Source of the DNA: Leptolyngbyaceae cyanobacterium
Lineage (GTDB): Bacteria > Cyanobacteriota > Cyanobacteriia > Cyanobacteriales > Nostocaceae
Direction of reading: 5' to 3'
DNA: 64,000 bases
NCBI GenBank assembly: GCA_036704005.1
Contig: DATNQO010000120.1
Span: 3,298 to 67,297 of the forward strand
This document shows, one piece after another, positions 11,988-38,800 of the stretch. A model generated the notes under the pieces. The model searched no databases. It saw only the letters and a program-made list of their open reading frames with translations, and was not told where the DNA came from. How positions within the stretch are numbered: the stretch's first letter is position 1; every line of letters starts with the position of its first letter. Made by a program: the position numbers and the translations under genes.

Positions 11988-12084
11988 TAATTTCGGTTAG
12001 GAAAGGAACTAGGGCTTGTTTTCCAAGTCTTTAAATACCTCCTAACCGCCCTTAAAATTAGGTAATAGGTAATTGTCTGTTACT

Positions 12085-12149: not shown

Positions 12150-12153
12150 TCAC

Positions 12154-15805: not shown

Positions 15806-16161
15806 CGTTGCTGAAATAAGGGTGATTCTTGTGGGATAGGCATCATCAGCGCCTTGGGAATACAAAGGACGGGCAAAATGCCCATCCCACAAAACTTTCT
15901 ACATCATCCCACAAATATGCAGCTTTGCCCCTGGACATCTGGTAGAAATTTTCTTGAAGATGTAAAATTCACTATGAAAGACTAGCTTGATATAGCGAAT
16001 TCATCACATTCATCTCGCCGATTTATTCAAAAAGTCGGACAGATGAATTAGGGCATCGTTTTCACATCATGGATGAATAGTCTAGTTGAAAAGTAATATT
16101 TTTCCACCAGATTTTAGTAACTTAATAGCTACTAATTCTCGATTTTAGGTAAATAACAGGT

Positions 16162-16335
16162 TTAAAAATCTTCCCAATCCGAAGGGAACTTGAAAGTGTA
16201 AATCTGAGGAGGATTATTTACAGGAGGAGTAGCTGGAGGCTCAGTTGGCTGTTCAGATGAAGATTGCTCTTCTAAAAAACGAGCAAAAAATGGTACTTCT
16301 GTGGTACTTGATGCTATTAGTGTATTTGTAGACAT
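16162..16335 (-). CDS. microviridin-type RiPP precursor peptide (MdnA/MvdE-like)
   Basis: 57 aa from ATG 16335 (AAGAGGGGA Shine-Dalgarno upstream). Leader contains PFFARFL. The C-terminal core YTFKFPSDWEDF fits the microviridin TxKxPSDW[ED][ED][FYW] pattern and ends at the stop codon. Confidence 0.8.
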   Translation of the reverse strand: MSTNTLIASSTTEVPFFARFLEEQSSSEQPTEPPATPPVNNPPQIYTFKFPSDWEDF

Positions 16336-16800
16336 AATATCCCCTCTTAGGAAATATGTGTTAAACATACTCAAGCATATCAATAATTACCTAAAATCAC
16401 AAGAAAAACAAACAATTTGGTTAGTAAGTATTCAAAAAATCATGTACTATTAAAAACTGTTTATTTGGTAAATAAATAGTACTAAAATATCATATATTTT
16501 TACATTATCAAGCAATTATAACACCAATTCAATAATATAGTCAAAAACAAATAAACCTTGTTTTAAGAGGCTGTTTGAAAAGTGATTTGCTGTGATATTA
16601 GACCTATTGCATAAGTAGTTCTCATCGGTGTTCATTCCTTCTCTACGTTCCCTACGGGACGCTCCGCATTTCAAGTACCTAAAGGCGCGAGGAGTGTCAA
16701 CTCAGGACTTACGCATCAAAGTTTTCTGTTGAGGCAGGGTGTAAGGGTTTTCAAGATTTACACCCCTACACCCTTGATTTTTCTTTAAAGTCCCGCTAAC

Positions 16801-16840
16801 AAAACAACCCGCCCACGCCATCAAATGAGACGTGGACGGG
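16801..16840 (-). terminator. rho-independent terminator candidate for the 16887-17942 gene
   Basis: 10-bp stem (CCCGCCCACG / CGTGGACGGG, one mismatch), followed on the minus strand by TTGTTTTGTT. Confidence 0.6.
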
Positions 16841-16886
16841 AAATGTTCAACTATGGGTATCTACCCGCGCTTAATTAGAGGCGATA

Positions 16887-17942
16887 TTACACACCTGCGC
16901 CGCTAGCTTGACCTGCTAATCTTTGTTGAACCTTGCTCTTAGCAGCTTTAAACTCAGTAGCTAGTTGCTCACTTTGCTCGCTGCTGAGGTTGTTACGAAT
17001 AGCAGCAAACAAGGTGCTTTCTTCTTGACGAACGTGATCCATCACGACATCAGCCAAGTCTTTAATTCTATCTTTGATTTCAGGATTAGATGGGCTGATA
17101 GCCTTGATTTGCTCTAACCGACGCTTCATGTCAGCTTGTTCGTCATACAGTTCTTGGGTATCACTTTGACCGTAGAAAGAACGCACTCTGGGATATAGTA
17201 CTTCTTCTTCTGCTTCAGCGTGAGCGGTTAGATCCTTGTAGAGTTGACCGAAGTACTCTTGGATTTTTTGAGGATTGTTACTTTGGGCAATTTCTGTGAA
17301 CAGGACATTTACTTTGTTGTGATCCAGACGCAGAACGTCTTGGATGTTCATGTCTTGCTTATCAGAACCTTGGGTAACGGCGCTACCTACTGCACCACTG
17401 AAGGCGGCGATCGCATCTTGAACTCGTCCCCAAATACCTTGATCTGCGTCTTGTCCGGTGAGTTCACGCACACCCAAAATTTCTAAAATACCTTTGAGTT
17501 GTTCTTGGTGAGCGCGGTTCTCAAAGTTAACAGCGTTTAAGGGGCCGATGGCTGCTAATATGTCAGCGCCTACTTTTTGGGCTGCTTTGTGAACCAGCAA
17601 ACCGCTCATTACTTGTTGGTGTTTGAGCAACTCGTGCTTAGATACTTTTTCAAAGAAGCTGAGTTGAGAACCTTGCATCAATTGGCGAATTTGGTCAACC
17701 ATTTCGGTGACTGTTTGTCTTGGTTGTTGGGGAACACCATATTGAACGATAACAGTTTCTATGATGCCCAAATTCTTACGGTCATCTTCGAGGAAATCGC
17801 GAAGTCTTCTAGAGATTTCATCATCAGTTGTTTCTCTGAGAAACCTTTCCTCATTCTCAATAATCAACTGTTGAAGTAGTTTTACATCTGCTAATTTTAC
17901 ACCGATAGCATTACGTTTTGCATCATCTAAAGTTGATACCAT
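16887..17942 (-). CDS. hemerythrin-like (HHE cation-binding) domain protein with helical N-domain
   Basis: 351-aa ORF. The C-terminal half has H...E/H..E spacing (LRLDHNKVNVLF, HAEAEEEVLYP, MDHVRQEESTLF) typical of hemerythrin-like domains. Confidence 0.5.
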   Translation of the reverse strand: MVSTLDDAKRNAIGVKLADVKLLQQLIIENEERFLRETTDDEISRRLRDFLEDDRKNLGIIETVIVQYGVPQQPRQTVTEMVDQIRQLMQGSQLSFFEKVSKHELLKHQQVMSGLLVHKAAQKVGADILAAIGPLNAVNFENRAHQEQLKGILEILGVRELTGQDADQGIWGRVQDAIAAFSGAVGSAVTQGSDKQDMNIQDVLRLDHNKVNVLFTEIAQSNNPQKIQEYFGQLYKDLTAHAEAEEEVLYPRVRSFYGQSDTQELYDEQADMKRRLEQIKAISPSNPEIKDRIKDLADVVMDHVRQEESTLFAAIRNNLSSEQSEQLATEFKAAKSKVQQRLAGQASGAGV

Positions 17943-20107: not shown

Positions 20108-20210
20108 GCAGGGGCTAGAGGCTGGAAGCTAGAGGTTAGGGGTTAGGGATTAGATTAACGCTCCCTAGTTACAAAATAGACCCTAACTCAAAAACCAACC
20201 ATACATTGCA

Positions 20211-20259
20211 ATTACCAATTACCAATTACCAATTACCAATTACCAATTACCAATTACCA
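20211..20259. repeat. STRR array (ATTACCA x7)
   Basis: Perfect heptamer array abutting and overlapping the GST stop codon. Confidence 0.9.
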
Positions 20260-22320: not shown

Positions 22321-22842
22321 ATGCCAAGAACGCAAAAAAACGATAATTTTATTGATAAATCCTTTACCGTCATGGCAGATATCATTCTCAAAATACTGCC
22401 AACCAACAAAAAAGCTAAAGAAGCGTTCGTTTATTACCGAGATGGGATGTCAGCCCAGGCAGAAGGTGAGTATGCCGAAGCACTAGAATATTATGAAGAA
22501 GCCCTCACCTTAGAAGAAGATACCAACGATCGCGGTTATATTCTCTACAACATGGGGCTAATTTACGCTAGCAACGGCGACCACAAAAAAGCCTTAGAAC
22601 TCTATCACCAAGCCATTGAAAATAATCCCAAGCTACCCCAAGCTTTGAACAATATAGCCGTTATTTACCACTACCAAGGCGAAAAAGCCAAAGAAGCTGG
22701 TGATAACGATGGTGGCGAAGCACTGTTTGACAAAGCCGCAGACTATTGGGTACGCGCCATTCGCATGGCTCCCAATAACTACATCGAAGCGCAAAACTGG
22801 TTAAAAACCACCGGACGGATGCAAATTGACGTATTCTTTTAG
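22321..22842 (+). CDS. ycf3: photosystem I assembly protein Ycf3 (TPR)
   Basis: 173 aa. [15 protein letters not shown]..., [25 protein letters not shown] and [10 protein letters not shown] are essentially the canonical Ycf3 sequence. Confidence 0.9.
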
Positions 22843-22914
22843 TCATTGGTCATTAGTCATTGGTCATTAGTCATTAGCTGTTGACAACTGACCACTGACA
22901 ACTGACCACTGACC
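22841..22914. repeat. STRR arrays (AGTCATT units, then ACTGACC/ACTGACA units)
   Basis: Read directly after the ycf3 stop. Confidence 0.9.
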
Positions 22915-23020: not shown

Positions 23021-23311
23021 ATGATTGACCGCGAACAAGTTCGTAAAGTAGCTTTGCTGGCCCGTTTGGAATTGACTCCAGAAGAAGAGGAACAATTCAC
23101 TACTCAACTAGGAAGTATTTTGGATTATGTCGAACAACTAAATGAATTAGACGTTACTAATGTACCTCCCACAACCAGAGCAATTGATGTCAGCAACGTC
23201 ACCAGAAAAGATGACCTCCAACCCTACGCTGACAGGGAAGCTATTCTTAGCAGTGCGCCTGAACAAGAAGGCGAATTTTTCAAAGTACCAAAAATTCTTA
23301 ATGCTGAATAG
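23021..23311 (+). CDS. gatC: Asp-tRNA(Asn)/Glu-tRNA(Gln) amidotransferase subunit C
   Basis: 96 aa. [40 protein letters not shown] is the GatC pattern. Confidence 0.9.
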
Positions 23312-23420
23312 TCATTAGTCATTAGTCATTAGTCATTATTCATTAGTTTATAGTTCAAAACCTGAATGTTTGCTTTCAACTGATAACTGATAACTGATAA
23401 CTGATAACTGATAACTGACC
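23309..23420. repeat. two STRR arrays (TAGTCAT units at 23309-23347; CTGATAA units at 23379-23420)
   Basis: Read directly. Confidence 0.9.
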
Positions 23421-24389: not shown

Positions 24390-24482
24390 GAGTGGGGAGT
24401 GGGGGGAGATGAGGGAGATGAGGGAGAATAACTAATGACCAATGACTAATGACTAATGACCAATGACTAATGACTAATGATT
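24390..24482. repeat. STRR arrays (GAGTGGG/GAGATGAGG units, then AATGACT units)
   Basis: Read directly between convergent genes. Confidence 0.9.
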
Positions 24483-25270
24483 CTATCTCCTCCCCAGAGC
24501 GATCGCACTAATTTATCGGTCATCTGTTCGCCAAATAGCCGCACTGCAATTTTATTATCTGGGTCGCGTTCGGCGATCGCACGACGGATAATTAAGTCAC
24601 GTTGGGCTAAAGCTGTACGTTCTAATTCTGGTACAGGTTCAGCTTGATCAACCCAAACCAACCAACAATCTATCATCTCATGAGCTACAGAACGTAGCGT
24701 CGCAATTGTTTCCTCTGTGACTGGGCTTGTGTAACACAGGCTTGTCTGAGATTGTACCTGACGGATGTAGAGAGTTTTACTAATATATTGTTGGAAGCGT
24801 TCATCATTAGCAAATGATAAGTATCTTTCATTTGCAGGTTCATAATAGCGGTCTAAGTAATCTAAGTCTGTGAATAAATCACTGCGAGCGATATAATCTA
24901 TATAGAAAAACAAATGTGGTACGGTGGCGAAAGCAAAAGCCAAATGGGGAACGCGAATATGTGACCCTAACCAAACAGTTAAGTGCATATTGCAAAAACC
25001 TGATTGTGGTTCACGCAACCATGAATGCACTAGCCAATCAATTTCCTTACCAGAAAAAGTATTCAACGAACCATGCGCTGCGCCTACTTGAGCCGTATAG
25101 TTTTGTAAATCTTTAGTAGACGGATCTGGCTGTAGTTCAAAACGCGCGTCTATTTTTTGGCGTAGTTCTTTGGTATTATTCCATAATTGCTCAAATATTG
25201 CTGTACTATCTACACGGCTTTGCTGTTCAATCATTATTGCCAGTACCGCTTTTAAGAGTGATGTATGCAA
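24467..25270 (-). CDS. hypothetical protein, possibly bilin-reductase/RCC-reductase-like fold
   Basis: 267-aa ORF. FCNMHLTVWLGSHIRVPHLAFAFATVP loosely parallels the xMHLE...LH.V.FP core of ferredoxin-dependent bilin reductases. Tentative. Confidence 0.35.
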   Translation of the reverse strand: MHTSLLKAVLAIMIEQQSRVDSTAIFEQLWNNTKELRQKIDARFELQPDPSTKDLQNYTAQVGAAHGSLNTFSGKEIDWLVHSWLREPQSGFCNMHLTVWLGSHIRVPHLAFAFATVPHLFFYIDYIARSDLFTDLDYLDRYYEPANERYLSFANDERFQQYISKTLYIRQVQSQTSLCYTSPVTEETIATLRSVAHEMIDCWLVWVDQAEPVPELERTALAQRDLIIRRAIAERDPDNKIAVRLFGEQMTDKLVRSLWGGDRIISH

Positions 25271-25834: not shown

Positions 25835-27760
25835 TTATAGATAATTATTTCCAACATGCTCATGAGAACCGAATGTTTCTAAGCTTAAAATACCAGCCGA
25901 TGATTTACAACTAACTCGTAAACTAGAATCAACACGAAAGTAATAAATATCTGCATTTGCAAATTTTGCAAATTGTAAACTTCCATTTTGCTTAAGCACT
26001 ACGGTATCTCCATCTGCTTCTGTTAGTAAATAAGATACTTTCGCTAGTGTTTCCTGTAGCTTAACTCTATCTCTATTATTACGATTATTTTGATAATCCC
26101 TTATAAAAGAGCTTGTATAAGATAAACGAGGAAAAACTAATAAATCCTTTGATAAAAAATCATTTTTGCACTTTTTCCAAATTAATGCACCCCAATTTGA
26201 TAAAATAGCATTATTATCAATCGTAAATATAAATGTTTCGGGGATACCTTCAGCTTCTCGTAAATTGATAGAGCCTGCCTCCATTAATGCAAATTTGACA
26301 GGATTGATAATTGAAGTATCAAGTTGTATAGGTATTCTAGGAATATTTATAAGCGTTGGATTTACTCCTTCAAGAACATAAAGAAGCTCATCAGCATATA
26401 ACATTCCAATTATATCCATATATGCTTGTAAGACTCTAGAACTTGCTACTAAGTTAAAAGAAATTCTGTATCCAGAATTTCTGAAGTTAGAAGCTATATC
26501 GTCTAACCAAACCAACAATTCATCTACACCATTCTTAAATCTTTCAGTGTTCGCTGTTGAAAATCCTTTTGGTATATATATATTAGCATTAAGCCCTTGA
26601 CCTCTAAGAAAATCCTGAATAATATCAGCTGTAACTCTAGATATTAGAGTATCACTAGCAATTAAAAAATGATAATCTTGTTTCCCCTGTTCTAATTTAC
26701 CTTGATACAACGCATAAATTACACTAAGTTCAATACTTGCCAACCGAACATCTCTTATACGACCTCCAAAGAGATTTGTAATTGCTCTTTCTTTAAGTTG
26801 ATCAATTATACTTTTAGCTTCTGGACTATACTCTTCAAGTTCTATATTTGTATAGTTAATACTCCGCCGCAAAATGTCGAACCAATAGCTATGGTCGTAC
26901 TTTCTATCAAGTTGATTAGTTAATAGACTTGTACCAAGAGTGGAAATAACTACTCGACGCATAGAGGTTGTTTTTATAGAATTTACTAATGTCCAATCTG
27001 GGGTTTCTGATTCAAGGGATAAATCATAAAGAATATCCTCAAATTGGTTTGTTTCTATTTGTTCTGTAATGGGGAAAATTACACTAGCACTTTCTAACAG
27101 ATTTTTCTGTTGAAGTACTTCGTCAAGTTGATCTGGACGTGTCTCGAAATTGTCTCTAGCTTCGCTTGCAATCCTGTTTACGTCAACCAACAACGGCTCG
27201 AAGCCAGCCTCAAGCAGAGGCTCTGCCAAAGTCTCCACTAAAGAAGCTAACCGCAACACTTCACCTATTTCTTCTTGCTGCACTCTTTGACTTATTGCTT
27301 GGGCTAACTCCTGCGCCACTTCATCAGGTTTGGTATACGCCAACGCTGTCCACTCCTGAGCTTCTCGCAAATCCTGTGTATCTGCGTCATCATCAGTTAA
27401 TCGCTGCGCTACATAATCTAATAAAAATTCCCCCAGTTCATCAAATCTTTCCTGCCCAAACTCCTTCTTCAATTCCCGCAACAATAAATTGCGATCGCTA
27501 ATATCCATCTCATACATCTCATAACCCACCTGACGACACAACCGCGACAGCAACACATGAGCAACCGCCACCCAAGGGGCTTGAGGAACAAAGTTTGCCC
27601 AAATTTGGTAAAGTAAATCAGGTGTCAGTACCAAAGGAAACGCCGCATGACGAGCTAAGTTGCGGTGTGCTTCCCCAAACTGCTGGGCAAACCCTTCTAC
27701 CCGTCTTTGGGCTATTCTCATCGCACGACTTTGGTTAATATCTGCCGTCACATCAGCCAT
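25835..27760 (-). CDS. three-module protein: helical N-domain (vWA-MoxR-associated by position) + CARF-like domain (APE2256/Csx1-type motifs) + RelE/ParE-like C-terminus
   Basis: 641 aa; the start overlaps the vWA stop by 13 nt. aa 267-445 hold VVISTLGTSLLTN, RLASIELS, FLIASDT and FNLVASS. aa 595-641 read FAKFANADIYYFRVDSSLRVSCKSSAGILSLETFGSHEHVGNNYL (RelE/HigB-like). Confidence 0.6.
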   Translation of the reverse strand: MADVTADINQSRAMRIAQRRVEGFAQQFGEAHRNLARHAAFPLVLTPDLLYQIWANFVPQAPWVAVAHVLLSRLCRQVGYEMYEMDISDRNLLLRELKKEFGQERFDELGEFLLDYVAQRLTDDDADTQDLREAQEWTALAYTKPDEVAQELAQAISQRVQQEEIGEVLRLASLVETLAEPLLEAGFEPLLVDVNRIASEARDNFETRPDQLDEVLQQKNLLESASVIFPITEQIETNQFEDILYDLSLESETPDWTLVNSIKTTSMRRVVISTLGTSLLTNQLDRKYDHSYWFDILRRSINYTNIELEEYSPEAKSIIDQLKERAITNLFGGRIRDVRLASIELSVIYALYQGKLEQGKQDYHFLIASDTLISRVTADIIQDFLRGQGLNANIYIPKGFSTANTERFKNGVDELLVWLDDIASNFRNSGYRISFNLVASSRVLQAYMDIIGMLYADELLYVLEGVNPTLINIPRIPIQLDTSIINPVKFALMEAGSINLREAEGIPETFIFTIDNNAILSNWGALIWKKCKNDFLSKDLLVFPRLSYTSSFIRDYQNNRNNRDRVKLQETLAKVSYLLTEADGDTVVLKQNGSLQFAKFANADIYYFRVDSSLRVSCKSSAGILSLETFGSHEHVGNNYL

Positions 27761-28911
27761 GAGTACATCACCTCCCCAGCAATATATCGACCCCGCAACA
27801 CAGTAATTGCTGCATTCATTCCCTGCGGACTCATCTCAAACATCGGCACAAAACGGGCAATTTCCTCAGCCGTAGTTTGCCGCCAGCATTCACTAGGCAT
27901 GGGATTCAACCAAGCAAAATAACGCACCGACTGCTGTAACTGCTCAATCCATACCTTAGTATTATCAACCCGTTCTGGGTCAAAATTCCCCCGTGCTGCT
28001 CCGGCATCGCTAATAATTAATACAGCCGCCCTTTCGCCTATTTCCGCCAAGACTTCAGAAACAGCCTTCGCCTCAAGCATCGCTGGATGTCGATATAAGT
28101 ATTCATCCGGGTAGTCATGAAAATAAAATACATTGGTTGTTCTCAACCGTCCTCCCCGTTGTGCCGTTTCCACCAACTGCCGCGATAAATCGTGAAACGG
28201 AACCATTGAGCCTTCCTGGTCAATTAGTAGCACCAAATCCGTGCGATTTGTACGCGGTGGCATCATCACAGGTTGCAGTAAAATACCCTCACGCCCAATT
28301 TTCGCCACCGTCGCTTCCACATCTAATTCTGTAGGTACTCCTTGGCGCACCGGACGACGCAGATAACGCCAGCATTGCTTCATTTGTCGCTTAGTCACAG
28401 GGAAATATTCTGTCAACAGCATATAACGAGGGCGTTTGAGTTCCCTATCCCTGCGAATACTCCGCACCGCTTGGACAGCTTGCACTGGTTCTGGTGTAAT
28501 AGTGGGAGTTGTTTCTAAATTAGATATTACTTCATCATCAAGAGGAAATTCTTCAGATGTAGCTGTTTCAATTGAGGTTGATTCATCATTTTCTGGTGTA
28601 AATGATTCTGAAATTAAAGTTGAAGTGTCATTACTGGATGTAGGTTCATGCAAAGATTCTGGAGAATTTACAGGGTGTAATTCGATTTGTTTCCACATCT
28701 CCCCAAATAAGCGTTGAATCAGGCGATTTTCTTCTTCAGATTTTGCCCACAACATACAACAAAGCTGCTCTAATTCCAGGCGACTATTAACACCAAACCC
28801 GGCTTTGAAACTACGCACAACCACTAAATATTCTTCAACCCCCAACGGCAAACCATGTCTCTGTCGCAGGCTGTTAAAAATATCTAGCAGTGATAGTTCT
28901 TCAAGTTTCAT
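27748..28911 (-). CDS. vWA-domain protein, CoxE-like
   Basis: 387 aa. Helical N-domain, S/T/E/P-rich linker, WRYLRRPVRQGVPTELDVEATV, and MIDAS-position LLIDQEGSM. Overlaps both neighbours. Confidence 0.7.
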   Translation of the reverse strand: MKLEELSLLDIFNSLRQRHGLPLGVEEYLVVVRSFKAGFGVNSRLELEQLCCMLWAKSEEENRLIQRLFGEMWKQIELHPVNSPESLHEPTSSNDTSTLISESFTPENDESTSIETATSEEFPLDDEVISNLETTPTITPEPVQAVQAVRSIRRDRELKRPRYMLLTEYFPVTKRQMKQCWRYLRRPVRQGVPTELDVEATVAKIGREGILLQPVMMPPRTNRTDLVLLIDQEGSMVPFHDLSRQLVETAQRGGRLRTTNVFYFHDYPDEYLYRHPAMLEAKAVSEVLAEIGERAAVLIISDAGAARGNFDPERVDNTKVWIEQLQQSVRYFAWLNPMPSECWRQTTAEEIARFVPMFEMSPQGMNAAITVLRGRYIAGEVMYSWLM

Positions 28912-29821
28912 ATTTTTTTAAATATCGCAGATGGTCTTCCCATTTCTTTAACAGAACTTCTGGAAAAGGTATTTCTCCCTCTAACTGCTTTAACACCTCA
29001 TCTTCAGGAAATTGCCGCAACACTGCAAACCAATCTAACAACTCACTGGTGCTAACTTTTTTACCTGCTTTCCCCTTCTCCATTTTCTGACGTAATTCAC
29101 TAAAACGCTGCACCGCAGCTTCCACTAAATCCGGTGAAGATTCCGAAAAGTGTGACTTGACAATATTAGCTAATTGTGAATATGGAAACTGAATATAATA
29201 AAACAGACAACGCCGCAGGAAAGCGTCTGGTAAATCCTTTTCATCGTTGCTAGTAACGATAATAATTGGAGGGTAATTTGCTTTGACTTCTTCTCCCTTT
29301 TCTTCAATTGTAAATTTCTGTTCATCTAACTCTCGTAACAAATCATTAGGGAAGTCAATATCAGCTTTATCAATTTCATCAATTAAAACTACGGTGCGCT
29401 GTTCATTTTTAAACGCACGTCCCAAAGGCCCCAATTTAATATAATTATCTAAATCCTTGACTTGAGAATTGCTTGCTTCCCCGATGCGAGAAAGTTGAGC
29501 ATCATGCAAGCGTCCAACCGCATCGTAGGTGTAAAGTCCATCTCTCGCCCTGGTTGTAGACTTAATAAACCAAGCTTCATAGGGTAAACCCAATTCGTAA
29601 GCTACCGCTTGCGCTAAAGTCGTTTTACCGCATCCTGGTTCACCTTTGAGCAATAAGGGGCGTTTTTCTAAGAAAATTGCCAGATTAACAGCTTGAATGA
29701 GTTCTGGTGATGGTAAGTAAGGAGTGAGTCCGTACTTTTGGCACTCTTGGGGTGAAATTGGCTTGCCTGTATAATATTGCTTGCCATTGGCAGTGAGTAC
29801 ACTTGCTAAATTTTGATACAT
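28901..29821 (-). CDS. MoxR-type AAA+ ATPase
   Basis: 306 aa. Walker A GEPGCGKT, Walker B VVLIDEIDKAD, sensor-1 IIIVTSN and FLRRC. Confidence 0.8.
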   Translation of the reverse strand: MYQNLASVLTANGKQYYTGKPISPQECQKYGLTPYLPSPELIQAVNLAIFLEKRPLLLKGEPGCGKTTLAQAVAYELGLPYEAWFIKSTTRARDGLYTYDAVGRLHDAQLSRIGEASNSQVKDLDNYIKLGPLGRAFKNEQRTVVLIDEIDKADIDFPNDLLRELDEQKFTIEEKGEEVKANYPPIIIVTSNDEKDLPDAFLRRCLFYYIQFPYSQLANIVKSHFSESSPDLVEAAVQRFSELRQKMEKGKAGKKVSTSELLDWFAVLRQFPEDEVLKQLEGEIPFPEVLLKKWEDHLRYLKKYET

Positions 29822-31371
29822 TGGGTAAAAACCTTTTCACAATCAATACTAAAAAAACTACAAATTTCTTCAAAGACAAATTGGGGAATACCTTGACAAG
29901 ACTTTTGAAACAATATTTCAGATGTCAATTTATCAAATTCGACTTCTATATCACTACGCTGCATCACAACTTCTGTTATCCATTCTTCAAGAATTTCCAG
30001 GGAAAAACTATCTACTGCGGGTAAGTATAGAGGTATTCGTGGGTCTAGAGGTTGAGGAGTTGTTGATACATTAATATTTGACTGGTGTACTTTGCCGCCA
30101 TGATCTACTAAAAACATAAACAAGTGAGTAGATTTTTTAGGTGGATTTTCTTTTCCGATATTTACCAATGGCTGCCAAAACTCCTCTAGCCAAGCAGATA
30201 AAATTTCTGGTTGTAAGCAATCTACTTTATTAAATATGAAAACCATATCTTGAGTCTGCCAGCGATCGCAAATTTTCTCCAAAATTTCGGAGGTAGAAAT
30301 TGGATGTACATGAAAATAACGTCCTAATTGCGTCCATAAGCGTTCTATATCTCTGTAACCTACATCAATGACAATTGGCTTGTTTTTCAAACTTGGTATC
30401 ATACGAAATAACTTAGCCAGCAAAACTTCTAATCCACACTCAGGTGCGTGATGAACTAAGAAGCCTGCTGTAAAGTAGCTTTTCATTACCTTCTTGACTA
30501 TATTTGTCTGTTGTTTAAAATCTACTTGTAAGAGTAAATCAAATATTAAAGTATGTTTCGTGTTTTGAGAAAGATTCGTTGTTTCTGACTGAGGTTTAGC
30601 CTTTCCTTGAATCAGCTTAATAGCTTCGCCGTGGTTGCTAATTACTGGGGATTGGGGAATTTTAGCCAAATTGTAATATCTTTGTAGGTTCTGCTCAACC
30701 GAATCTGCAAGCTTCAGGTTTGTAATCCAGTCCCCTTCTGTAACTCGATGAGGGTTAAGTCCCGCTAAAATAGCACCTGTAAGTACCCCATGTTTACCAT
30801 CTAACTGCTGATAGGCAACTTCATAGTCACGGGATGCAGCAATCAAGAAGCGATCGCAACCAGAACTATGTCTTTCCAGTTCAGTATCTTGGAAATTTAG
30901 TAATTCTCCAGCAAAACAGCAATCAAGCCAGATAATCTGCTGTTTAACCTTACTTCGGTGCAATATATCCCATAAATCTCGTAGCGAAAAACCCCATTGA
31001 TTTTTGCTAGGACAACTATCACTAGCTGCTAAATAACCATACGTTAACTCTTGGCTTAATTGCTTACGCAGTCCATGTCCAGTAAAAAATAGTAGTGCTG
31101 TTTCTGGAGGTTTTTCGGTCTTCGGGAGGAATAGATCGAGAATTGCTTGTTCTAGTTCTTCTGTCTTAACTAGTTTATCTGGATCAACCTGCATCCCGTC
31201 TATATTGCTGGCTGGAAATCGCTTAACTCGGAAGTTCCCGTGGGTTTCTAGAATTTGAGCGATCGCTTCCGCATCCCCGGCTGGCGTAGTTAGGTGCTTG
31301 GCTTTACTTGTCGGTGTATCCTTTAAAGATGGATATTGATTGACCCCAACTACAATTGCTTCTCTTCTCAT
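29806..31371 (-). CDS. caspase-like (C14-type) peptidase fused to a degenerate P-loop-NTPase-like region and a short C-terminal domain
   Basis: 521 aa. His in LLFFTGHG (H99), Cys in IIWLDCCFAG (C151). aa ~275-430 have NTPase-like strand/helix spacing, but the Walker-A position reads HHAPECGLE. Confidence 0.7.
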   Translation of the reverse strand: MRREAIVVGVNQYPSLKDTPTSKAKHLTTPAGDAEAIAQILETHGNFRVKRFPASNIDGMQVDPDKLVKTEELEQAILDLFLPKTEKPPETALLFFTGHGLRKQLSQELTYGYLAASDSCPSKNQWGFSLRDLWDILHRSKVKQQIIWLDCCFAGELLNFQDTELERHSSGCDRFLIAASRDYEVAYQQLDGKHGVLTGAILAGLNPHRVTEGDWITNLKLADSVEQNLQRYYNLAKIPQSPVISNHGEAIKLIQGKAKPQSETTNLSQNTKHTLIFDLLLQVDFKQQTNIVKKVMKSYFTAGFLVHHAPECGLEVLLAKLFRMIPSLKNKPIVIDVGYRDIERLWTQLGRYFHVHPISTSEILEKICDRWQTQDMVFIFNKVDCLQPEILSAWLEEFWQPLVNIGKENPPKKSTHLFMFLVDHGGKVHQSNINVSTTPQPLDPRIPLYLPAVDSFSLEILEEWITEVVMQRSDIEVEFDKLTSEILFQKSCQGIPQFVFEEICSFFSIDCEKVFTQCIKI

Positions 31372-31417
31372 ACTAACTAATTTTCACCGTACCAAGTATC
31401 ACAAAATACCCACTTTA

Positions 31418-33628
31418 ATGAATACTTCCGTTCCCAAAACTCTACTAGCTTTTTTACTGGCGCTCAAAGAATTGGAAGTTCCGTTGAGCAAAGATGAACA
31501 AGAGCTTTTGCATGATATAGGAAATCAACTTAAACTAGCTCCTGATGATTGGGATCTGATTGAAGCCGAATTAATCGCTATTATTCAAGCAAACTCCGTA
31601 CTAAATCATATTTATGAGTATAACAAAGTCAAATTAGATGCTTTAGAGGGAAGTTTCCCTAGAGAATTGTTACCAAGTCTAGCTGACTTAGAGAAAGAAT
31701 TATTTGCGGACACAAGAGAAATCATCACTTTTGACGGTCAAACTAAAGGTGAACCTAACAATCAACCAAACCTATTAATTAGCCTGACCAGTTCTATCCT
31801 GCTTACTGATAACCAAGACAACATTATAAAACAGCTACCTTTCATACAAAATATTGCTGAGTATGTAGAAAAATATCGTTACTTTAATACTTACTTTGTT
31901 AAACCTGATGAGGATGGGCGATGTGATAATTTCACAACAGTACCACCCAGTCAACCTTTAATACACGGACAAACTTATTTATTATGTGTAGATATCAGCC
32001 CAGAACGAAAAGGCATAGAAAGTGAGCCTATGCCCTTTCCAGAGCAAGCCTTGGCTGAGGTTTGGCATGACTCAGAATCCTTACCTCTTGATTTAGTCGT
32101 GGCTTCCAAGGATTTTAACATTGATGCAACTGTCAAAAAACTAACCCTACCCCGCACTGGTGCATCAGAGATTGTACAGTTCACGATTAAACCTAACTTG
32201 TTTGAAGGTCGGGGTTACATTCACATAGACTTGTTATATCGCGGATATCTGCTTCAGTCCAAGCAAATCACAGTCCTTATCATCCCCATAGCAGGAGCCG
32301 AAATCCCGGAATCACTGCGCCCACCGCAAACCGCTAAGATAACCTTTACCACCACAGACTTACTGACTCATGAAAAGCTAGCACTGTTGCCTGAGCGATT
32401 CTTCACTGTAGATGTACAGGTAGATACAAGAGATGGTAGCACTGACCTGCGCTTTCTCGACAGAACACAGGGCAATGAAGAATTATTGTCTTACAGTACC
32501 AATTTACAATCTGGGCTGGGGAATGCGATCGCCAGAATCCGGCAAAAATTGCACTCAATGGCGACGGCTTATAAGTTTAAAACTCAAGGCGATATGCAGC
32601 TTCTAAATACTTGGCTACCTCAGTTAGCTGATGCTGGACACTCTTTATATCGCTCACTACTTGATAAAAACAAAGGTCTAACATTAGGTGAAGATAGAGG
32701 CGAAAAATTAAGCGCCGCCTTGAAACCCGATAGCGTCATCCAAATTAACCCGATTAACCCTATTTTAGGATTGGGAAAGTCTACCATTCCTTGGGCGTTA
32801 CTATACGAGCGTAAAGTAATGACCAGTAAAGAAAATCATGTCTGCAAAGAGTTTCTCAATCACGACATCGACTGTACTGATTGCCCTTTTAAAAATAATT
32901 ATAAAGTTGTTTGCCCTCATGCTTTTTGGGGCTACCGCTATGCTATTGAGCAATTACCAGCTTGGACAATTAGCGAAGGTTCTCAAACGCCTAGCCTTGT
33001 ATGGCAAATTGCTAACAATCAACCTTTATATATTAATTTCAACGTCTGGCGAGATTTTAGGTTTTGGCAAAACCACCTACCTAAAATTGAACAACTTGGT
33101 TCCGTGAAAATATTAATAGCTGAAGAAATAAACGACTTGGAACTAATTTGGTCAAATCACAGTTCAGACTTAGATATTATCTACTTTTATTGTCATGGAG
33201 GCATAGACGAAACTGAAAATTTGCCCTACTTGCAACTGAGCGATGACAAAATTTACAGTAATTTTATCGAAGCCTGTGAGGTAAACTGGCAGCATCGCCC
33301 TTTAGTTTTACTCAACGGTTGCGCTACAGGTGATTATGGCCCTGATAGTTACATCAGCTTAATTGATGACTTTCGTGTAGCTGGCGCTAGTGGTGTCATT
33401 GGTACAGAATGTCCTATACCAGAGTTATTTGCAGAACTTTATGCTGTCACTCTGCTGAAACGGGTATTTCGGGGCGAACCTTTAGGAAAAGCTATGCTGA
33501 CAGTGCGGCGAGAAATGCTTCAGCAAAACCTCAATCCTTTGGGTTTACTGTATTCATTGTATGCTCCTTATGAGATTGCTTTAGCTCGTGCGTTGGCGCA
33601 GCCCGCCGTAGGCATCGCCCCTAATTAA
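31418..33628 (+). CDS. CHAT-domain (caspase-fold) protease with unknown N-terminal region
   Basis: C-terminal IIYFYCHGG (His codon 33194-33196) and LVLLNGCATG (Cys codon 33320-33322). Cys cluster C-x9-C-x2-C-x9-C-x-H at 32843-32920. ATG 31418 preferred over TTG 31340. Confidence 0.75.
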   Translation: MNTSVPKTLLAFLLALKELEVPLSKDEQELLHDIGNQLKLAPDDWDLIEAELIAIIQANSVLNHIYEYNKVKLDALEGSFPRELLPSLADLEKELFADTREIITFDGQTKGEPNNQPNLLISLTSSILLTDNQDNIIKQLPFIQNIAEYVEKYRYFNTYFVKPDEDGRCDNFTTVPPSQPLIHGQTYLLCVDISPERKGIESEPMPFPEQALAEVWHDSESLPLDLVVASKDFNIDATVKKLTLPRTGASEIVQFTIKPNLFEGRGYIHIDLLYRGYLLQSKQITVLIIPIAGAEIPESLRPPQTAKITFTTTDLLTHEKLALLPERFFTVDVQVDTRDGSTDLRFLDRTQGNEELLSYSTNLQSGLGNAIARIRQKLHSMATAYKFKTQGDMQLLNTWLPQLADAGHSLYRSLLDKNKGLTLGEDRGEKLSAALKPDSVIQINPINPILGLGKSTIPWALLYERKVMTSKENHVCKEFLNHDIDCTDCPFKNNYKVVCPHAFWGYRYAIEQLPAWTISEGSQTPSLVWQIANNQPLYINFNVWRDFRFWQNHLPKIEQLGSVKILIAEEINDLELIWSNHSSDLDIIYFYCHGGIDETENLPYLQLSDDKIYSNFIEACEVNWQHRPLVLLNGCATGDYGPDSYISLIDDFRVAGASGVIGTECPIPELFAELYAVTLLKRVFRGEPLGKAMLTVRREMLQQNLNPLGLLYSLYAPYEIALARALAQPAVGIAPN

Positions 33629-33643
33629 TTGTCTGATACCATC

Positions 33644-35296
33644 ATGAAACGCTGGATTACTGCTGCATTACTAATTTTACTTGTTTGTCCTGCTCCTGCT
33701 ATTGCTCAAACTAACGTCAAAATTGAAATCGATGCTAAAGATAAGCCTTTAGAAATTAAAGGTTGGCTGGGTGAAGAGAATAGTTTAATTAGCAATATCC
33801 GATTAACCGCTTCTGGGGGAAACATCACATCTTGGACATTTCTACCCTCAGACTTGAAGCGCCAAGAGGGAGATGAGGTATTAGGCCGACAACAGGTAGA
33901 ATTAATAGGCGATCGCAAGTTAGAAGCTGGACTACCAAAGGATTTCCAGGTGAAACTTAACGGTGTTAAGTTACCAGGAACTTACCAAGGACAACTGGAA
34001 ATACTTCTACCCAATCAAAAGCGGTCTGAAGCTTTGGTAATTCCTTTAACAGTGACAGCAAAAGCCAAACCTGCATTAGTACCAGCCAAAGATTCAGAAC
34101 AATTGCAACTACAATTAGTCCGATGCAGTTGGGACTGTGGTTTAGCGCAGTTATTACTTCCTGCGAGTGCTTTCCAAAGTCAAAGACTAATTTATTTAGA
34201 TAATCCTAATCAAGCAACTGTATCTCTGACCAGTGCAGAAGTAATTTTACAAGGGAAATTAACAAACTATCAAATTACCAATACTGAGGTAGAACCACCA
34301 GTAAGTCCCCAAACTTTAGCTGCGAATAAAATTATTAGTTTGCCTTTGAAGTGGGAGCGATCGCAAATTCCCCCCGACAGATATACTGGAGCAGTTTACC
34401 TGACAATGGAAGGTAGAGAAGGAAGACTATCAATTCCCATAGATTTAAGTATGCGGACTGGCCCAGCCATACCAATTTTAGTGTTATTGCTGGGTATTTT
34501 GTTGGGTAGGTTGTTTAAATATATGCAGGAAAAGGGGATTCCACAATCGGATGCTTTGGCGAAAGTCTATGAACTAGAGAACTTGATTAGTCAAGCCGAC
34601 CCCCAAGACCAAGAAATTCTCAGTCCGATGATTAATCAAGTCCGAAGTTCAGTTACTCAAATGGATTTAGAAACAGTAAATGCAGATTTAGCCATCATTA
34701 AAGAGCGTTTCAACTCCTTAGATAAGCTAAGAAAAATCGAACAGCAGTTACAAGATATGAAACAAGACCCTGATGTGGGTGGTGATAACGGAATATTAGC
34801 CAAAATTAATGAAGCTCGAAAGAACATTAAATTAGAAAAGGATAATCAAGCTCAAGAATTGCTGCAACAAATACAGGATAGTATCATCCAACTCCAGAAG
34901 AATGTAATGATGGGAGGAAATCAACCACCTGATCCTAGTTTGATAATAGCCGCAAATGAAGCTGCTGAGGCTAGAAAATATGCTGAAGCTATACAAGCTC
35001 AGAAACTTAAAACTCCTCGGTTTGTTTGGTGGAGAAGACCTTTAATAGTTATAGCTGGAGTATCTAACGAATTACGAGCAGAAGCTACTTTGTGGGTGGT
35101 GCGACCACTGTTATCTTTAACTTTGTTATTAGGATTGTCCCTAGTAGGGTTACGTGCTTTGTATGTAGAAAAGGGGTTAACCTTTGGTGCTAACCCCTTT
35201 TCTGATTATGTGGAATTAATATTATGGGGATTGAGTGCAGATGTCGCTAGTCGGAGTTTGAGTAATTTGGCGGGGGGAGAGGAAAAGAAAGAGTAG
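33644..35296 (+). CDS. signal-peptide membrane protein with beta-rich N-region, coiled coil and C-terminal TM helices
   Basis: MKRWITAALLILLVCPAPAIAQ signal, TM at AIPILVLLLGILLG, long charged helical region, and two further hydrophobic segments. Starts 15 nt after the CHAT stop. Confidence 0.6.
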   Translation: MKRWITAALLILLVCPAPAIAQTNVKIEIDAKDKPLEIKGWLGEENSLISNIRLTASGGNITSWTFLPSDLKRQEGDEVLGRQQVELIGDRKLEAGLPKDFQVKLNGVKLPGTYQGQLEILLPNQKRSEALVIPLTVTAKAKPALVPAKDSEQLQLQLVRCSWDCGLAQLLLPASAFQSQRLIYLDNPNQATVSLTSAEVILQGKLTNYQITNTEVEPPVSPQTLAANKIISLPLKWERSQIPPDRYTGAVYLTMEGREGRLSIPIDLSMRTGPAIPILVLLLGILLGRLFKYMQEKGIPQSDALAKVYELENLISQADPQDQEILSPMINQVRSSVTQMDLETVNADLAIIKERFNSLDKLRKIEQQLQDMKQDPDVGGDNGILAKINEARKNIKLEKDNQAQELLQQIQDSIIQLQKNVMMGGNQPPDPSLIIAANEAAEARKYAEAIQAQKLKTPRFVWWRRPLIVIAGVSNELRAEATLWVVRPLLSLTLLLGLSLVGLRALYVEKGLTFGANPFSDYVELILWGLSADVASRSLSNLAGGEEKKE

Positions 35297-35300
35297 GTGA

Positions 35301-35804
35301 TTAGATAATAGGTGCATGAGGGCCTACATCACCCCCTGAAAAAGGTTGATTCTCTTTTATTCGCTCTTCCAAAAGAGTTGATAGTTCTTCTGGAGTTTTC
35401 ACCCATAATCTTTCAATATTAGAACTTTCTGATGTGTTCAGAAGTTCTTTGATGTAATTTTCTTGTTCTGTAGTCACAGCTACAGGTAAATCTGGTGTAC
35501 CCACAATAGTAATTGTTGGATAATACAGGGCTTCAGCAATAGTAAAGCCAAATCGACAGCGAAATTTATTAAAATATTGCCAACTGGCTTGAATCCAAGG
35601 GATAGGAACTATTTCGGTTTCATTTTGACCAAATAGAATATATTGTAATAACAAATTATCTACTTTATCGACCAACTCCATAGCTTTAATTATTTTGCAA
35701 GTTGACTCATTGTCAAAAGAAAACTTAACTTGTTTAGTATCTTCGTCTATCTTTAATTTTCTTCTAGTCTTTTCAACAGCAATAGAAAAAGGAACTAATT
35801 CCAT
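35301..35804 (-). CDS. hypothetical protein, operon partner of the caspase-STAND gene
   Basis: 167-aa ORF beginning 11 nt after the upstream stop. No family recognised. Confidence 0.5.
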   Translation of the reverse strand: MELVPFSIAVEKTRRKLKIDEDTKQVKFSFDNESTCKIIKAMELVDKVDNLLLQYILFGQNETEIVPIPWIQASWQYFNKFRCRFGFTIAEALYYPTITIVGTPDLPVAVTTEQENYIKELLNTSESSNIERLWVKTPEELSTLLEERIKENQPFSGGDVGPHAPII

Positions 35805-35815
35805 ATTTCATTCTC

Positions 35816-38800
35816 TTATTTAACTATAGGTTTATTAGAACGATAGACTCCTTGATCTGTCCCAATCCACAGATATTTATCCGTCCCCAAAATCATATTA
35901 TAAACTTTCTTAACTTGACCGTTTTTGATAGAAATATTTACCCAATTATTGTCTATATGGTTATATAAAGAAATATGGTTTTTATTTGTCAGAGCTAATA
36001 TTGATTTATTAGGTAAAATGATTAAATCTAATATAGTACTGCCTAATGTAGAGTAATTACTTATATCGTTATTTTTCAACCTGGAGTCACTGGAAACATT
36101 CGTGATCATACTCACATTTCCATTAAAGTCACCAATGGCTAAGGTTCTTTGCTCAGAATTAAAATTTAATGTTCTGAAATCTCTAAATGGTAATTTAAAA
36201 CCATCCTGTTGTTTTTCATGGTAACATATAGGTTGATCATTACCTATACCCATACGGATAAGAGCCTCTGGTGCAGATATCCATAAAGAATTATTATTTT
36301 TATCTATAACTATTTTATCAATATGCAATGATGAAGTAGGTAGGGATTTACATAGCTGATGAATATCTCTGATATATTGCCATCCTCTAGAATTTTGTAT
36401 GTAAAGCCCCTGATCAGTTCCTAACCACAAGTTACCTTGTTTATCTTTAGCTATCGTTAAAATTTCTGTATCATTAGGAATAGATTTAATAGTTTTAAAT
36501 ACCATTTTATCATTATCTAACTTGCCTTTTAGCACACCTAATTCTTTAACTCCAACCCAAATTTCTTCTCCTTCAGCCCAAATAGCACTGACTTTTTTTT
36601 CCGGTAAATATTTACTTAAAATATGAGTTTGCATATTGTACTGCCATAAACCTAGACCATGTTTTCTCAACAATCCATTATGGAAATATCTCTTAGGCGA
36701 ATATGCTGCCATCCACAATGATTTATTAGTAATAATTAACTTTTCTATGGAAAAATTCACTGTTTCTTGAATGGGCGAGGTTTGATTGATTGCTTGTTTT
36801 AAATTTTCTATTTCATTTTTCTTGGTTAGTATTTCTGTTGTTTTTACTAACTGAATACTCAGCATTATAGAAAATCCCGTAGTCATACATAAAGCAAAAA
36901 TTAAACCTATAAAAGTGTTTTTTCGCCGACGATTCTTTATAAATTCTTGTCTATCTGTTTCTATGCGACTAATTTTAATAAACTCTTGCGCTAAACTAGA
37001 TAAATGTATGATTCTGAAATTCTTTTCTAAAAAATATTCAACTTCAGCTAGTTTTTTTCCTTGTAATAGATAAGCTGATTCAAACATCTTACCTTTATCT
37101 TCCCATTCTTCGGCAGCAGCCTGGATCCTGCGCTCAGTTCTAATCGCCTCCCGATTATTATCCAGCAACTTTTGCAACCTTGACCAATGGCGAATTAAGG
37201 CTTCATGCGCTACATCCACTACCGCCACCTTCTCCTCACCTCGACGTTGTTCGCTAGTAACAATTAACTTAGCCTGTGCCAATTTTTGAATTACTTGCTT
37301 TACCAACTGTGCAGATTTACCCAACGAATCTAAATCTCGCTGCGGAACTTGCTTACGTGTATCTGGTGTCCCTTCCCCTAACTGAGTTAAATTAATAAAA
37401 ATCAAATCTGCTATTTTTTGTTCTTCAGCCGATAGTTGTTTGTAAGTTTGTTCTGCCAGATTTTCTAGAGTTTTTCGCACCCCACCTAATTGATGATAAC
37501 TGTCTAGCTTCAACCAATTTAATGTCTGCCGTTGCCAAAGTTGTTCTAAAGTATATGACAATAAAGGCAACATTCCCGGTTCAGGTTCTTGTGGGGAATC
37601 TTCAACAGCAACTCCCAAATCTTGGAGAATAGCATTAATGAGATTTTCTTCCACCTTCCGCCCTAGTTTGGCTGCTGGTTCTCTGATGACTCGCTGCAAC
37701 TCTTCTAAAGACATGGGAGTTACCATCAGCAAATTGCTTTGAATTAAATCAGCCAGTTGATGATGTGTAGCACATTTACCTAAAAAGTCATCACGCATGG
37801 CAAATATCAGGCAGAGTTTATCTTCTGTCTGTTTGAGCGCACCTAATAAACTAGAAATAAAATGTTGTCGGTCAGTTGGGTTTTGACAAAGGGTAAAAAT
37901 CTCTTCAAATTGATCGACAATTAGTAGGGTACGGGGCGATCGCGCTGCTTTAATTAATCTTGCCACTCCCGTTGCACCTTGAGCGATCGCATCTTCTGCT
38001 ATTTTTAGCTGTTCTGCACGCTGAATATCTGTGACTGACTCATCAAGAAATACCGTGGCTAAACTTACCAAAGGTCGCTCTGTGGGAGTCAACACCCGAA
38101 TCTTCCATTGTTCTGTCTCTGGTAATCTACGTTCCTGTTGTAATTGGTATATCAACCCCGCTCGTAGTAAGGAAGATTTCCCACTCCCCGACACCCCCAA
38201 GACTGCCAAAAAGTTGCCTTTACCCACCTGAATGTGCTGGATGAGCTTTTGGGTTAATAATTCTCGCCCATAAAAATAAGCTGCATCTTCAACATCAAAG
38301 AAACGTAATCCTTTGTATGGACAAACTCCCTCTGGGATGTGGATGAGAGTATTTTCCCGTTCCCCAGTGAGAATAATTTCCCGGTTGGGATTATACCATA
38401 TCGGTTGTTGGGGAATCTCCTTGAGTGTTTGGGAAATAAACTCAATTAATTTGTCATTGTTGACCAAACCATCTGGCTGTTGTCTGGGGTCTAGTCCTTG
38501 CCATAGTGCTTGAGAAAATACCCCATGCTGTCCTGCAATATCTTCCTCTGCAACTTCAAATTCTCTGGATGCCGCGATGAAAAATCGCGTCTGTTCTTGA
38601 GGCGATGTACCTAAATCTGCTTCTCGAAAATTAAATAACTCTCCACTGTAGCAACAGTCAAGCCAGACTATTTGCTGCTTGAGAGGGCTTTTTTGCAACA
38701 GTTCTCGCAACCATCGCAGGGAAACACCCCATTGATTCTTGCGGGGGTCAACGTCACTGGTAGCTAAAAAACCTTCTGTGACTCCGCCGCGATTTTTGCG

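Follow-up and report, generated by a model that had tools for sequence, protein, structure and literature searches.

Ternary conflict systems that combine a vWA protein with a MoxR-type ATPase have been described on computational grounds (Kaur et al., 2020, eLife, PMC7159879; Kaur et al., 2021, eLife, PMC8195603). Specifically, the effectors of these systems are joined to the vWA protein through an alpha-helical linker domain termed 'vWA-L', and in iSTAND2 systems and a minority of iSTAND systems this domain, with its C-terminal effector, is encoded by a separate gene adjoining the vWA gene (PMC8195603). A second point of reference is Cami1, a CARF-RelE effector of type III CRISPR-Cas with structures deposited as PDB 8PHB and 8PHJ (Mogila et al., 2023, cited in PMC11229360). 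Here we describe a locus that draws on both. It lies in a 64 kb stretch of DNA from a Leptolyngbyaceae cyanobacterium (contig DATNQO010000120.1; the window, whose coordinates are used for all of its features), where an open reading frame (ORF) at 25835-27760 on the minus strand ends in a Cami1-like CARF-RelE module.

By analogy with the described systems, this ORF probably supplies the effector of an iSTAND-type MoxR-vWA ternary conflict system built from four genes, in which a CARF-RelE unit that was captured once and had its ligand pocket retuned would bring about translation arrest under the control of the machine. The operon type and its adaptor domain were already described computationally, and what appears to be new is the CARF-RelE payload, its single-origin clade and the retuned pocket. 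An earlier reading of this DNA, made from the sequence alone, had raised the possibility of a link between CARF signaling and a MoxR/vWA machine. The part of that proposal that concerns the helical domain and the four-gene layout is not new, as both correspond to the published iSTAND ternary system (PMC8195603). The CARF-RelE unit is indeed carried on that domain, but it is one of many interchangeable C-terminal modules.

Like the published iSTAND systems, which are found in filamentous cyanobacteria, the operon and its relatives combine an N-terminal signaling domain and iSTAND, a MoxR ATPase, a CoxE-type vWA protein and a helical linker with a variable effector. Related loci also carry effectors known from the published systems, including FGS, GUN4, REC, kinases, caspase/CHAT, STAND and RelA/SpoT. 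The difference is the CARF-RelE effector, which is absent from the main text of both Kaur papers and from the supplementary files searched; the one CARF entry in the 2021 supplement is 'CARF+PIN', which belongs to a different system (PMC8195603). Full-text literature searches combining Cami1 with MoxR and 'CARF domain' with iSTAND returned no paper, the CARF classification of Makarova et al. (2020) being outside their scope. Furthermore, no experimental test of any vWA-MoxR-iSTAND member was found in the literature.

The CARF-RelE module, its operon and its adaptor domain

The 641-residue protein encoded by the ORF (gene 4 of the operon) has three parts, a conserved helical N-domain, a variable linker and the Cami1-like CARF-RelE module, and its features are distributed as follows.

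27146..27760, minus strand: residues 1-205, conserved helical N-domain with one beta-hairpin (conservation, AlphaFold2)
26963..27145, minus strand: residues 206-266, variable linker of low model confidence (conservation, pLDDT)
26261..26962, minus strand: residues 267-500, CARF domain of the APE2256/CARF7 type (Pfam, PADLOC, PDB profile, Foldseek)
26126..26260, minus strand: residues 501-545, alpha/beta connector from CARF to RelE (secondary structure, pLDDT 73-92)
25835..26125, minus strand: residues 546-641 and the stop codon, RelE/YafQ/YoeB-fold domain (AlphaFold2, Foldseek)

A Cami1-like CARF-RelE module makes up the C-terminal 375 residues. The sequence-only reading had assigned an APE2256-type CARF to residues 267-445 from a series of motifs (VVISTLGTSLLTN, RLASIELS, FLIASDT and FNLVASS), all of which are present; the protein closes with ...FRVDSSLRVSCKSSAGILSLETFGSHEHVGNNYL. 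The Pfam model Cas_APE2256 (PF09651) matches residues 341-475 (E 4e-18), and the PADLOC profile 'CARF7--CARF_RelE' (PDLC01934) matches residues 267-635 from end to end (profile positions 1-359 of 359, E 5.9e-115). When PDB sequences were searched with a profile of the module, the Crn1-type CARF7 entries 7pq2 and 3qyf (E 1e-18 to 2e-15) and Cami1 8phb (E 3e-9) were recovered. A full-length AlphaFold2 model was built from 22 sequences, with block-mean predicted local distance difference test (pLDDT) values mostly of 72-88 in the CARF. Foldseek places this model closest to Cami1 with bound cyclic tetra-adenylate (cA4) in complex with the 70S ribosome (8phj_X; 394 columns aligned at E 1.1e-11) and also matches it to 8phb. 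The connector lies inside both the whole-protein match to Cami1 and the PADLOC match. The CARF assignment and the comparison with Cami1 made in the earlier reading are thus borne out, with significant matches for the CARF in sequence and structure and for RelE in structure only.

The last ~95 residues share the fold of the type II toxins RelE, YafQ and YoeB, as the earlier reading had suspected from the C-terminus. Block-mean pLDDT is 88-97 for residues 531-630, and the C-terminal domain (residues 546-641) separately matches YafQ, YoeB and RelE in Foldseek with a probability of 1.00 (9lew_B, TM-score 0.74, root-mean-square deviation 2.5 Å). The RelE domain is invisible to sequence methods alone, and its predicted identity rests on the structure match. 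Almost all family members keep R609 and R615, and most have His at position 633. In a non-significant hhalign register, R609, R615 and H633 fall opposite YoeB R59 and R65 and YafQ H63 and H87, making these three residues candidates for catalysis; the likeness to the type II toxins in conserved basic and His residues (YoeB R65, YafQ H87) comes from this same non-significant register. Unlike those toxins, the domain is fused within a large protein and its sequence similarity to them is undetectable with Pfam or a PDB profile search. It also has no adjacent antitoxin gene, as the next gene downstream on the minus strand (24467-25270) resembles RCC reductase. Control of the domain would presumably be allosteric or by tethering.

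Gene 4 is the last of four co-oriented, overlapping genes on the minus strand, whose other members and candidate promoter are listed here.

31605..31632, minus strand: candidate operon promoter TTGACT-16 nt-TATGAT, ~235 nt upstream of gene 1
29806..31371, minus strand: gene 1, Peptidase_C14 caspase and iSTAND with a C-terminus of ~100 residues without assigned family (Pfam, NCBIfam)
28901..29821, minus strand: gene 2, MoxR-type AAA+ ATPase (Pfam AAA_5, E 1.5e-14; NCBIfam MadB-type ATPase, E 3e-23)
27748..28911, minus strand: gene 3, CoxE-type vWA protein without C-terminal effector (Pfam VWA_CoxE, E 3.4e-11; NCBIfam SAV_2336 N-terminal-related, E 2e-18)

The caspase-iSTAND protein is the system-specific 'third component'. 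Its iSTAND (PF19995, residues 280-422, E 7e-21) follows a Peptidase_C14 domain (residues 3-241, E 4e-11; NCBIfam 'caspase, EACC1-associated type', E 1.6e-20) in which the motifs of the His/Cys dyad, FTGHG and LDCCFAG, are intact. The MoxR protein likewise has intact Walker A (GEPGCGKT) and Walker B (LIDEID) motifs. The vWA protein consists of a conserved segment (residues 1-80), a poorly conserved linker rich in Ser, Thr, Glu and Pro, and the vWA domain. The motif resembling a metal ion-dependent adhesion site in this domain (window 28218-28232, in the region of vWA residues 227-231) reads DxEGS rather than the canonical DxSxS, and DxEGS is kept in every locus (L001-L013 and the distant L088) whose alignment spanned it. 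Consecutive genes overlap by 16 nt (iSTAND/MoxR), 11 nt (MoxR/vWA) and 13 nt (vWA/CARF-RelE ORF). L001 shows the 11 and 13 nt overlaps again, and L004, L005 and L007 share the one of 13 nt, in agreement with the translational coupling to vWA and MoxR that had been proposed earlier. Promoter and terminator scans gave no more sites than in shuffled sequence, and the promoter is a candidate only.

The N-domain is a highly conserved adaptor that occurs with many different partners. With the whole protein as query, two kinds of homologue were recovered: about a dozen full-length orthologues (58-77% identical), and ~100 proteins in which the similarity is confined to the first 180-260 residues (62-88% local identity) and the C-termini are entirely different. 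C-terminal modules joined to the domain include AAA_35, CHAT, NACHT, receiver (REC), GUN4, FGE-sulfatase, WD40, kinase, PNP, RelA/SpoT and EAD8-iSTAND. Across proteins with unrelated C-termini, column identity is ~0.9 or higher over residues 21-140 and falls to 0.2-0.4 past residue 200. The domain is helical and ends at about residues 200-210, and the order of the operon is conserved, as expected from the vWA-MoxR-associated helical domain of ~210 residues that the earlier reading had placed ahead of the CARF. An exhaustive HMMER search with residues 1-200 gave 1681 clusters at 50% identity; in the 150 listed of these 1681, whose proteins are 141-1647 residues long, the domain occupies the N-terminus or a position close to it.

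No Pfam or NCBIfam model covers the N-domain in the window protein or in 10 distant carriers. An AlphaFold2 model of the domain from an alignment of 41 sequences (pLDDT 92.4, predicted TM-score 0.86) is a helical bundle with one beta-hairpin, and Foldseek found nothing significant for it in PDB or BFVD. The best match, Apaf-1 (3j2t), has an E value of 0.24 and was not built on. The idea that the domain and one of the core proteins form an EAD-type pair, with a copy of the same domain on each, was rejected, as hhalign comparisons with the operon's vWA and caspase-iSTAND proteins gave probabilities below 0.1; at ~200 residues the domain is also larger than a typical EAD. We provisionally equate the N-domain with the published vWA-L on the basis of its position, its architecture and fold class, and the shared repertoire of effectors. 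The linker that follows is conserved only among CARF-RelE orthologues and has pLDDT below 50 at residues 204-265, and residues 206-266 are a candidate flexible tether or protease-accessible segment.

A short motif, [FL]xRG[DNE], marks the end of the N-domain. Among 227 carriers of the domain, RGD is present in 51 and RG[DNE] in 101, compared with 0.7% for RGD in the remainder of these proteins. At residues 203-209 (~27134-27154) the window protein has ARDNFE (RDN). A role for RG[DNE] as a ligand of the vWA metal site was considered and set aside as pure speculation, the motif being not universal and replaced by RDN in the window. Unusual modules on the N-domain include a complete RelA/SpoT unit (HD_4, RelA_SpoT and TGS) in a protein of 756 residues (P0214) and a second EAD8-iSTAND at L007 5763-7595.

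The arrangement of the operon was compared in eight distinct loci that carry the N-domain (L001, L002, L004, L005, L006, L007, L008, which is the same site as L012, and L013). The gene order X-iSTAND, MoxR, vWA, N-domain-effector is found in L001, L002, L004-L008, L011 and L013, and L011 and the short contig L003 agree with it as far as they reach. The 13 nt overlap is usual before the N-domain gene, and a Uma2 gene or a small ORF is sometimes inserted. Identity to the window proteins is as follows.

MoxR: 82-97%
vWA domain: 78-98%
N-domain: 72-94%
iSTAND: 43-77%
C-terminal module: replaced in several loci

In Calothrix sp. FACHB-1219 (L004) the core is 94-97% identical to that of the window, but it is accompanied by EAD8-iSTAND and a different effector. 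This near-identity between differing ends indicates a conserved MoxR-vWA-adaptor core with modules that can be swapped at both ends. Even the systems with a CARF-RelE effector differ in the domain that begins the first gene, which is a caspase in the window, L001 and L013, TIR in L008 and HTH (helix-turn-helix) in L002.

Origin of the fused clade and its ligand loop

When GTDB representative genomes were scanned, 80 CARF-RelE loci were obtained. Genes for the N-domain, vWA, MoxR and iSTAND lie upstream in only three of them (L011, L012 and L013; identity 66-71%), and no cas genes are present in the retrieved flanks of these three. In contrast, about 40 stand-alone CARF-RelE loci have Cas10 and RAMP homologues in a fixed arrangement, and L057, the sole locus examined from the remaining stand-alone group, has Cmr2, Cmr3 and RAMP. 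When all six distinct fused loci are considered, no cas gene lies within the retrieved flank (0-10 kb, depending on the length of the contig). The fused, iSTAND-linked genes form one clade in 100 of 100 neighbor-joining bootstraps, and midpoint rooting places this clade beside an 18-member subgroup linked to type III systems. A single clade of fused genes suggests that the module was taken from a type III CRISPR locus only once.

One protein (P0017, 376 residues, 69% identical) had seemed to be a free, ASSR-type CARF-RelE, and was rejected as such because its start is miscalled and translation of the upstream sequence reveals a full N-domain. It is deposited as a 'CRISPR-associated protein' and belongs to Scytonema tolypothrichoides VB-61278 (L008 9203-11131, JXCA02000001.1), where its frame lies downstream of TIR-iSTAND, MoxR, vWA and Uma2 genes and includes the complete vWA-L.

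A type III locus is found directly beside an iSTAND system in Phormidium sp. OSCR (L088; LJZT01000004.1, 1276-17073). The type III side includes Csm1/Cas10 (1276-3597) and a canonical CARF-RelE (9001-10137), and the iSTAND side a caspase-iSTAND (11621-13195), MoxR, vWA and a vWA-L-FGE-sulfatase (15499-17073). Adjacency of this type could have let a CARF-RelE gene recombine into the effector slot.

Compared with Cami1, the protein has the same succession of a CARF7-type CARF and a RelE fold. The cyanobacterial stand-alone homologues are 39-52% identical and lie beside type III cas genes in the loci resolved. However, the protein described here carries an additional N-terminal part of 266 residues (vWA-L and linker), and it is encoded in a MoxR-vWA-iSTAND operon with no cas gene or array in 64 kb. 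It differs further in the ligand pocket, where the fused clade has [AG]S[SF]R in place of G[GS]FK and S.EL.VIYA in place of SAELNGIYG.

The distribution of these sequences is strict. All 79 stand-alone loci examined have a SAELNGIYG-like segment and FNLVG[GS]FK, whereas the window and all seven iSTAND-linked loci (six distinct, as L012 duplicates L008) have S.EL[SN]VIYA and FNLV[AG]S[SF]R. In the window protein the ligand loop reads SFNLVASSRVLQAYMD and has R442 at a position that is Lys in all type III-linked relatives; Gly-Gly of the loop has also given way to the bulkier Ala-Ser. Among 17 positions fixed differently between fused and stand-alone proteins, seven fall at residues 434-449 and two are residues 347 and 350 (p = 9e-7 and 4e-8, the first for residues 434-449). 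The sequence-only reading had noted FNLVASS in place of N.TGGFK. This is no loose match to the motif but a clade-specific, fixed remodeling of the loop that includes the change of Lys to Arg.

The Crn1 ring nucleases of the CARF7 clade (Sis0811, 7PQ2; Sso1393, 3QYF) provide the best CARF sequence matches and allow the changes to be placed. The lost Lys is the equivalent of Sis0811 K169, a catalytic residue at the pocket bottom that is needed for cA4 cleavage (PMC9638899), and it is Arg here and in all fused orthologues. The CARF retains GTS, SxE and SDT (S369, D370, T371), with S278 of GTS equivalent to Sis0811 S12. The position of the base-contacting Thr98 is Ser (S369), and that of Tyr191 is Glu across the CARF-RelE family. 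Furthermore, the C-terminal domain here has the RelE fold, rather than the HTH domain described for ring nucleases (PMC9638899).

Within the fused clade, the CARF is 56-75% identical and the RelE half 51-61%. Because the CARF is the better conserved of the two, the remodeled loop looks like a new selected state and not decay. As judged from these alignments, the rebuilding of the loop is specific and fixed in the clade and would have followed capture, and the CARF is still, by the same comparison, under selection as a putative ligand sensor. A pocket rebuilt after capture probably responds differently from that of the canonical, cA4-activated Cami1.

No source of a CARF ligand is present in the window. 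It contains no CRISPR-like array, only heptamer repeats; Pfam scans of 36 ORFs of ~120 residues and longer revealed no Cas or cyclase family; and tblastn searches of the window with seven type III Cas proteins (four of Cas10 type, Cmr3 and two RAMPs) gave nothing better than E 0.3. The earlier reading, which had found no Cas10, cyclase or CRISPR array in the 64 kb, was correct in this respect. The source of the ligand, which it had left open, can be narrowed: of the three reference genomes in which the fusion occurs, two contain a type III locus that has a Cas10 homologue and a canonical CARF-RelE of its own. These are S. tolypothrichoides VB-61278 (fused L012 and type III L081) and the metagenome-assembled genome B12_bin-0982 (fused L013 and type III L073), in both of which the type III locus has Cas10 and RAMP homologues. 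Supply of cyclic oligoadenylate (cOA) in trans is thus conceivable, although the pocket differences that are fixed between such same-genome paralogues argue against simple sharing of cA4.

Proposed mechanism and alternative explanations

By analogy with Cami1 and the Kaur/Aravind model, the system might operate as follows. The vWA-L domain would dock the effector onto the vWA/MoxR pair, and the vWA-MoxR-iSTAND complex would retain it at rest. On sensing of an invader by iSTAND, ATP hydrolysis by MoxR would remodel the complex, and in the caspase-bearing versions the caspase may also cut the linker at residues 206-266. The freed CARF-RelE unit would dimerize, and RelE would cleave mRNA on the ribosome, leading to translation arrest and to abortive infection or dormancy. 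The CARF may add or modify a ligand-dependent threshold.

Several points weigh against this proposal. RelE-type Pfam models do not match the ORF, and a profile of the C-terminal domain has no match among PDB sequences. The catalytic residues can be named only as candidates because the hhalign alignments to YafQ and YoeB are not significant; many relatives have Glu at position 633; and E628, F630 and H635 of the window protein stand in place of the R, Y and Y of most orthologues (these positions vary across the family, except for 630, which is mostly a conserved Tyr). The proposed identity of the N-domain with vWA-L draws on position, architecture and effector repertoire. The full-length AlphaFold2 model is poor in its N-terminal half, so that the packing of the domains cannot be judged. 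Binding through vWA-L, cleavage by the caspase, RNase activity and ligand binding are all inferred steps. Finally, caspase cleavage cannot be the general release step, because orthologous systems have HTH-iSTAND (L002) or TIR-iSTAND (L008) in place of the caspase protein.

Among the alternatives, the one that survives best, though we judge it distinctly less probable than the proposal above, is that the CARF senses type III cOA made elsewhere in the cell, such that both machines are needed to arm the toxin or either one suffices. Co-occurrence of the fused gene with a Cas10/RAMP locus in the two genomes named above is consistent with this possibility, as are the retention of S278, S369, D370 and T371, the basic residue (Arg) still present at position 442, and the Phormidium type III locus directly beside an iSTAND system. 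However, this co-occurrence rests on only two or three genomes, and cas genes are lacking from the 0-10 kb flanks of the six distinct fused loci as well as from the window. Moreover, all fused copies share the fixed loop changes, whereas all CRISPR-linked copies, the same-genome paralogue included, keep G[GS]FK. This pattern favors a different ligand or response over shared sensing of cA4.

We tentatively suggest, at slightly lower odds still, that the CARF was retuned to another second messenger, either another cOA or a signal made by these 'multicellular' conflict systems. In that case the operon would work with two keys, ATP-driven or proteolytic release on the one hand and a nucleotide signal on the other, and it would link CRISPR-type signaling chemistry to the bacterial caspase/STAND apoptosis-like pathway.

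Alternatively, the CARF might have lost signaling and serve only in dimerization or regulation, with activation purely through remodeling by MoxR/vWA/iSTAND or through proteolysis. There is no nucleotide cyclase gene in any fused operon, a Lys that every stand-alone relative keeps, and that is catalytic in Crn1, has been lost, and Gly-Gly has given way to bulkier residues. We nevertheless regard such a ligand-independent scaffold as unlikely. Decay would be expected to leave scattered and variable changes, but these replacements are fixed across orthologues that are only 58-77% identical overall, and conservation within the C-terminal module is highest in the CARF, where GTS, SxE and SDT are intact.

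More doubtful is sensing of a nucleotide-derived signal that belongs to conflict systems themselves, for example an ADP-ribose compound of TIR origin or a product made by another effector that is encoded elsewhere. The pocket is remodeled, an orthologous operon (L008) starts with TIR-iSTAND, and the published model proposes second thresholds derived from nucleotides (PMC7159879; PMC8195603). However, the same CARF-RelE clade is found with caspase-iSTAND (window, L001, L013) and HTH-iSTAND (L002), where no nucleotide-generating domain is present. Furthermore, we know of no CARF that binds TIR products. Finally, that the protein acts as a ring nuclease or sponge that degrades or sequesters cA4 and so brakes type III signaling is highly improbable, since, although the closest solved CARFs by sequence are Crn1-type (7pq2, 3qyf) and the equivalent of the catalytic Ser (S278) is present, the K169 equivalent needed for cleavage (PMC9638899) is Arg in all fused copies, the RelE-fold toxin domain is intact and the gene occupies an effector slot.

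If the fused protein is, as we favor, a captured effector of the ternary system, its lineage bears on several wider matters. CARF effectors are understood almost entirely as type III CRISPR outputs, and this monophyletic Cami1-type lineage lies outside a cas locus and is now the payload of a different machine. The captured payload gives the computationally described vWA-MoxR-iSTAND machine a tractable read-out, namely mRNA cleavage on the ribosome. The ancestral G[GS]FK and the derived [AG]S[SF]R also exist as paralogues in the same genomes, and so constitute a natural experiment on CARF specificity. Binding of a new ligand by the derived pocket would reveal cross-talk or a new messenger, and binding of nothing would show a sensor domain repurposed as a scaffold.

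Neighboring genes and repeats

Upstream of the operon, a divergent gene encodes a CHAT-domain protein (31340-33628, plus strand) and is followed by an ORF of 555 residues without family (33629-35296, plus strand) and by a caspase-nSTAND1-Reg_prop protein (35816-39106, minus strand), the caspase of which is 51% identical to that of the iSTAND protein. The operon is part of a larger conflict island that includes this region (window 31340-39106). CHAT and caspase-nSTAND neighbors likewise flank L001 and L013.

On the other side, several related loci have a convergent pair of genes for Peptidase_C11 (clostripain) and an HSP70-like protein after the effector (L001 12011-15201, L004 7020-10194, L005 10319-13493, L013 10373-13572). 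In L004 and L005, a Reg_prop protein and then a CHAT protein are encoded beyond this pair. The pair is absent from the window, where the RCC reductase-like gene at 24467-25270 is present instead. A Uma2-family endonuclease gene stands between the vWA and vWA-L-effector genes in three independent loci, L006 (7320-7958), L008 (8534-9172) and L011 (1874-2512); in the 2021 eLife supplement, a Microcystis operon has its Uma2 gene between MoxR and vWA (PMC8195603).

The repeats in the window are intergenic tandem heptamers (TAGTCAT, CAACTGA, CCTCTAA, CAATTAC, GGGGAAA) and not CRISPR arrays. Their sites include 453-563, 801-851, 13742-13903, 20209-20259, 22839-22914, 23309-23418, 24427-24480 and 43014-43068, among others. 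Short tandem heptamer repeats are of a type known from heterocystous cyanobacteria, and together with the closest loci they suggest that the window probably belongs to a member of the Nostocales. At 7275-7354, a 40 nt unit with an internal palindrome (GAGACGCGATTAATCGCGTCTG) is perfectly duplicated in tandem. The window also contains two tandem paralogues of the DUF3466 family (49181-51742; 415 and 408 residues), the first of which has an internal repeat of ~144 nt at 49486-49747.

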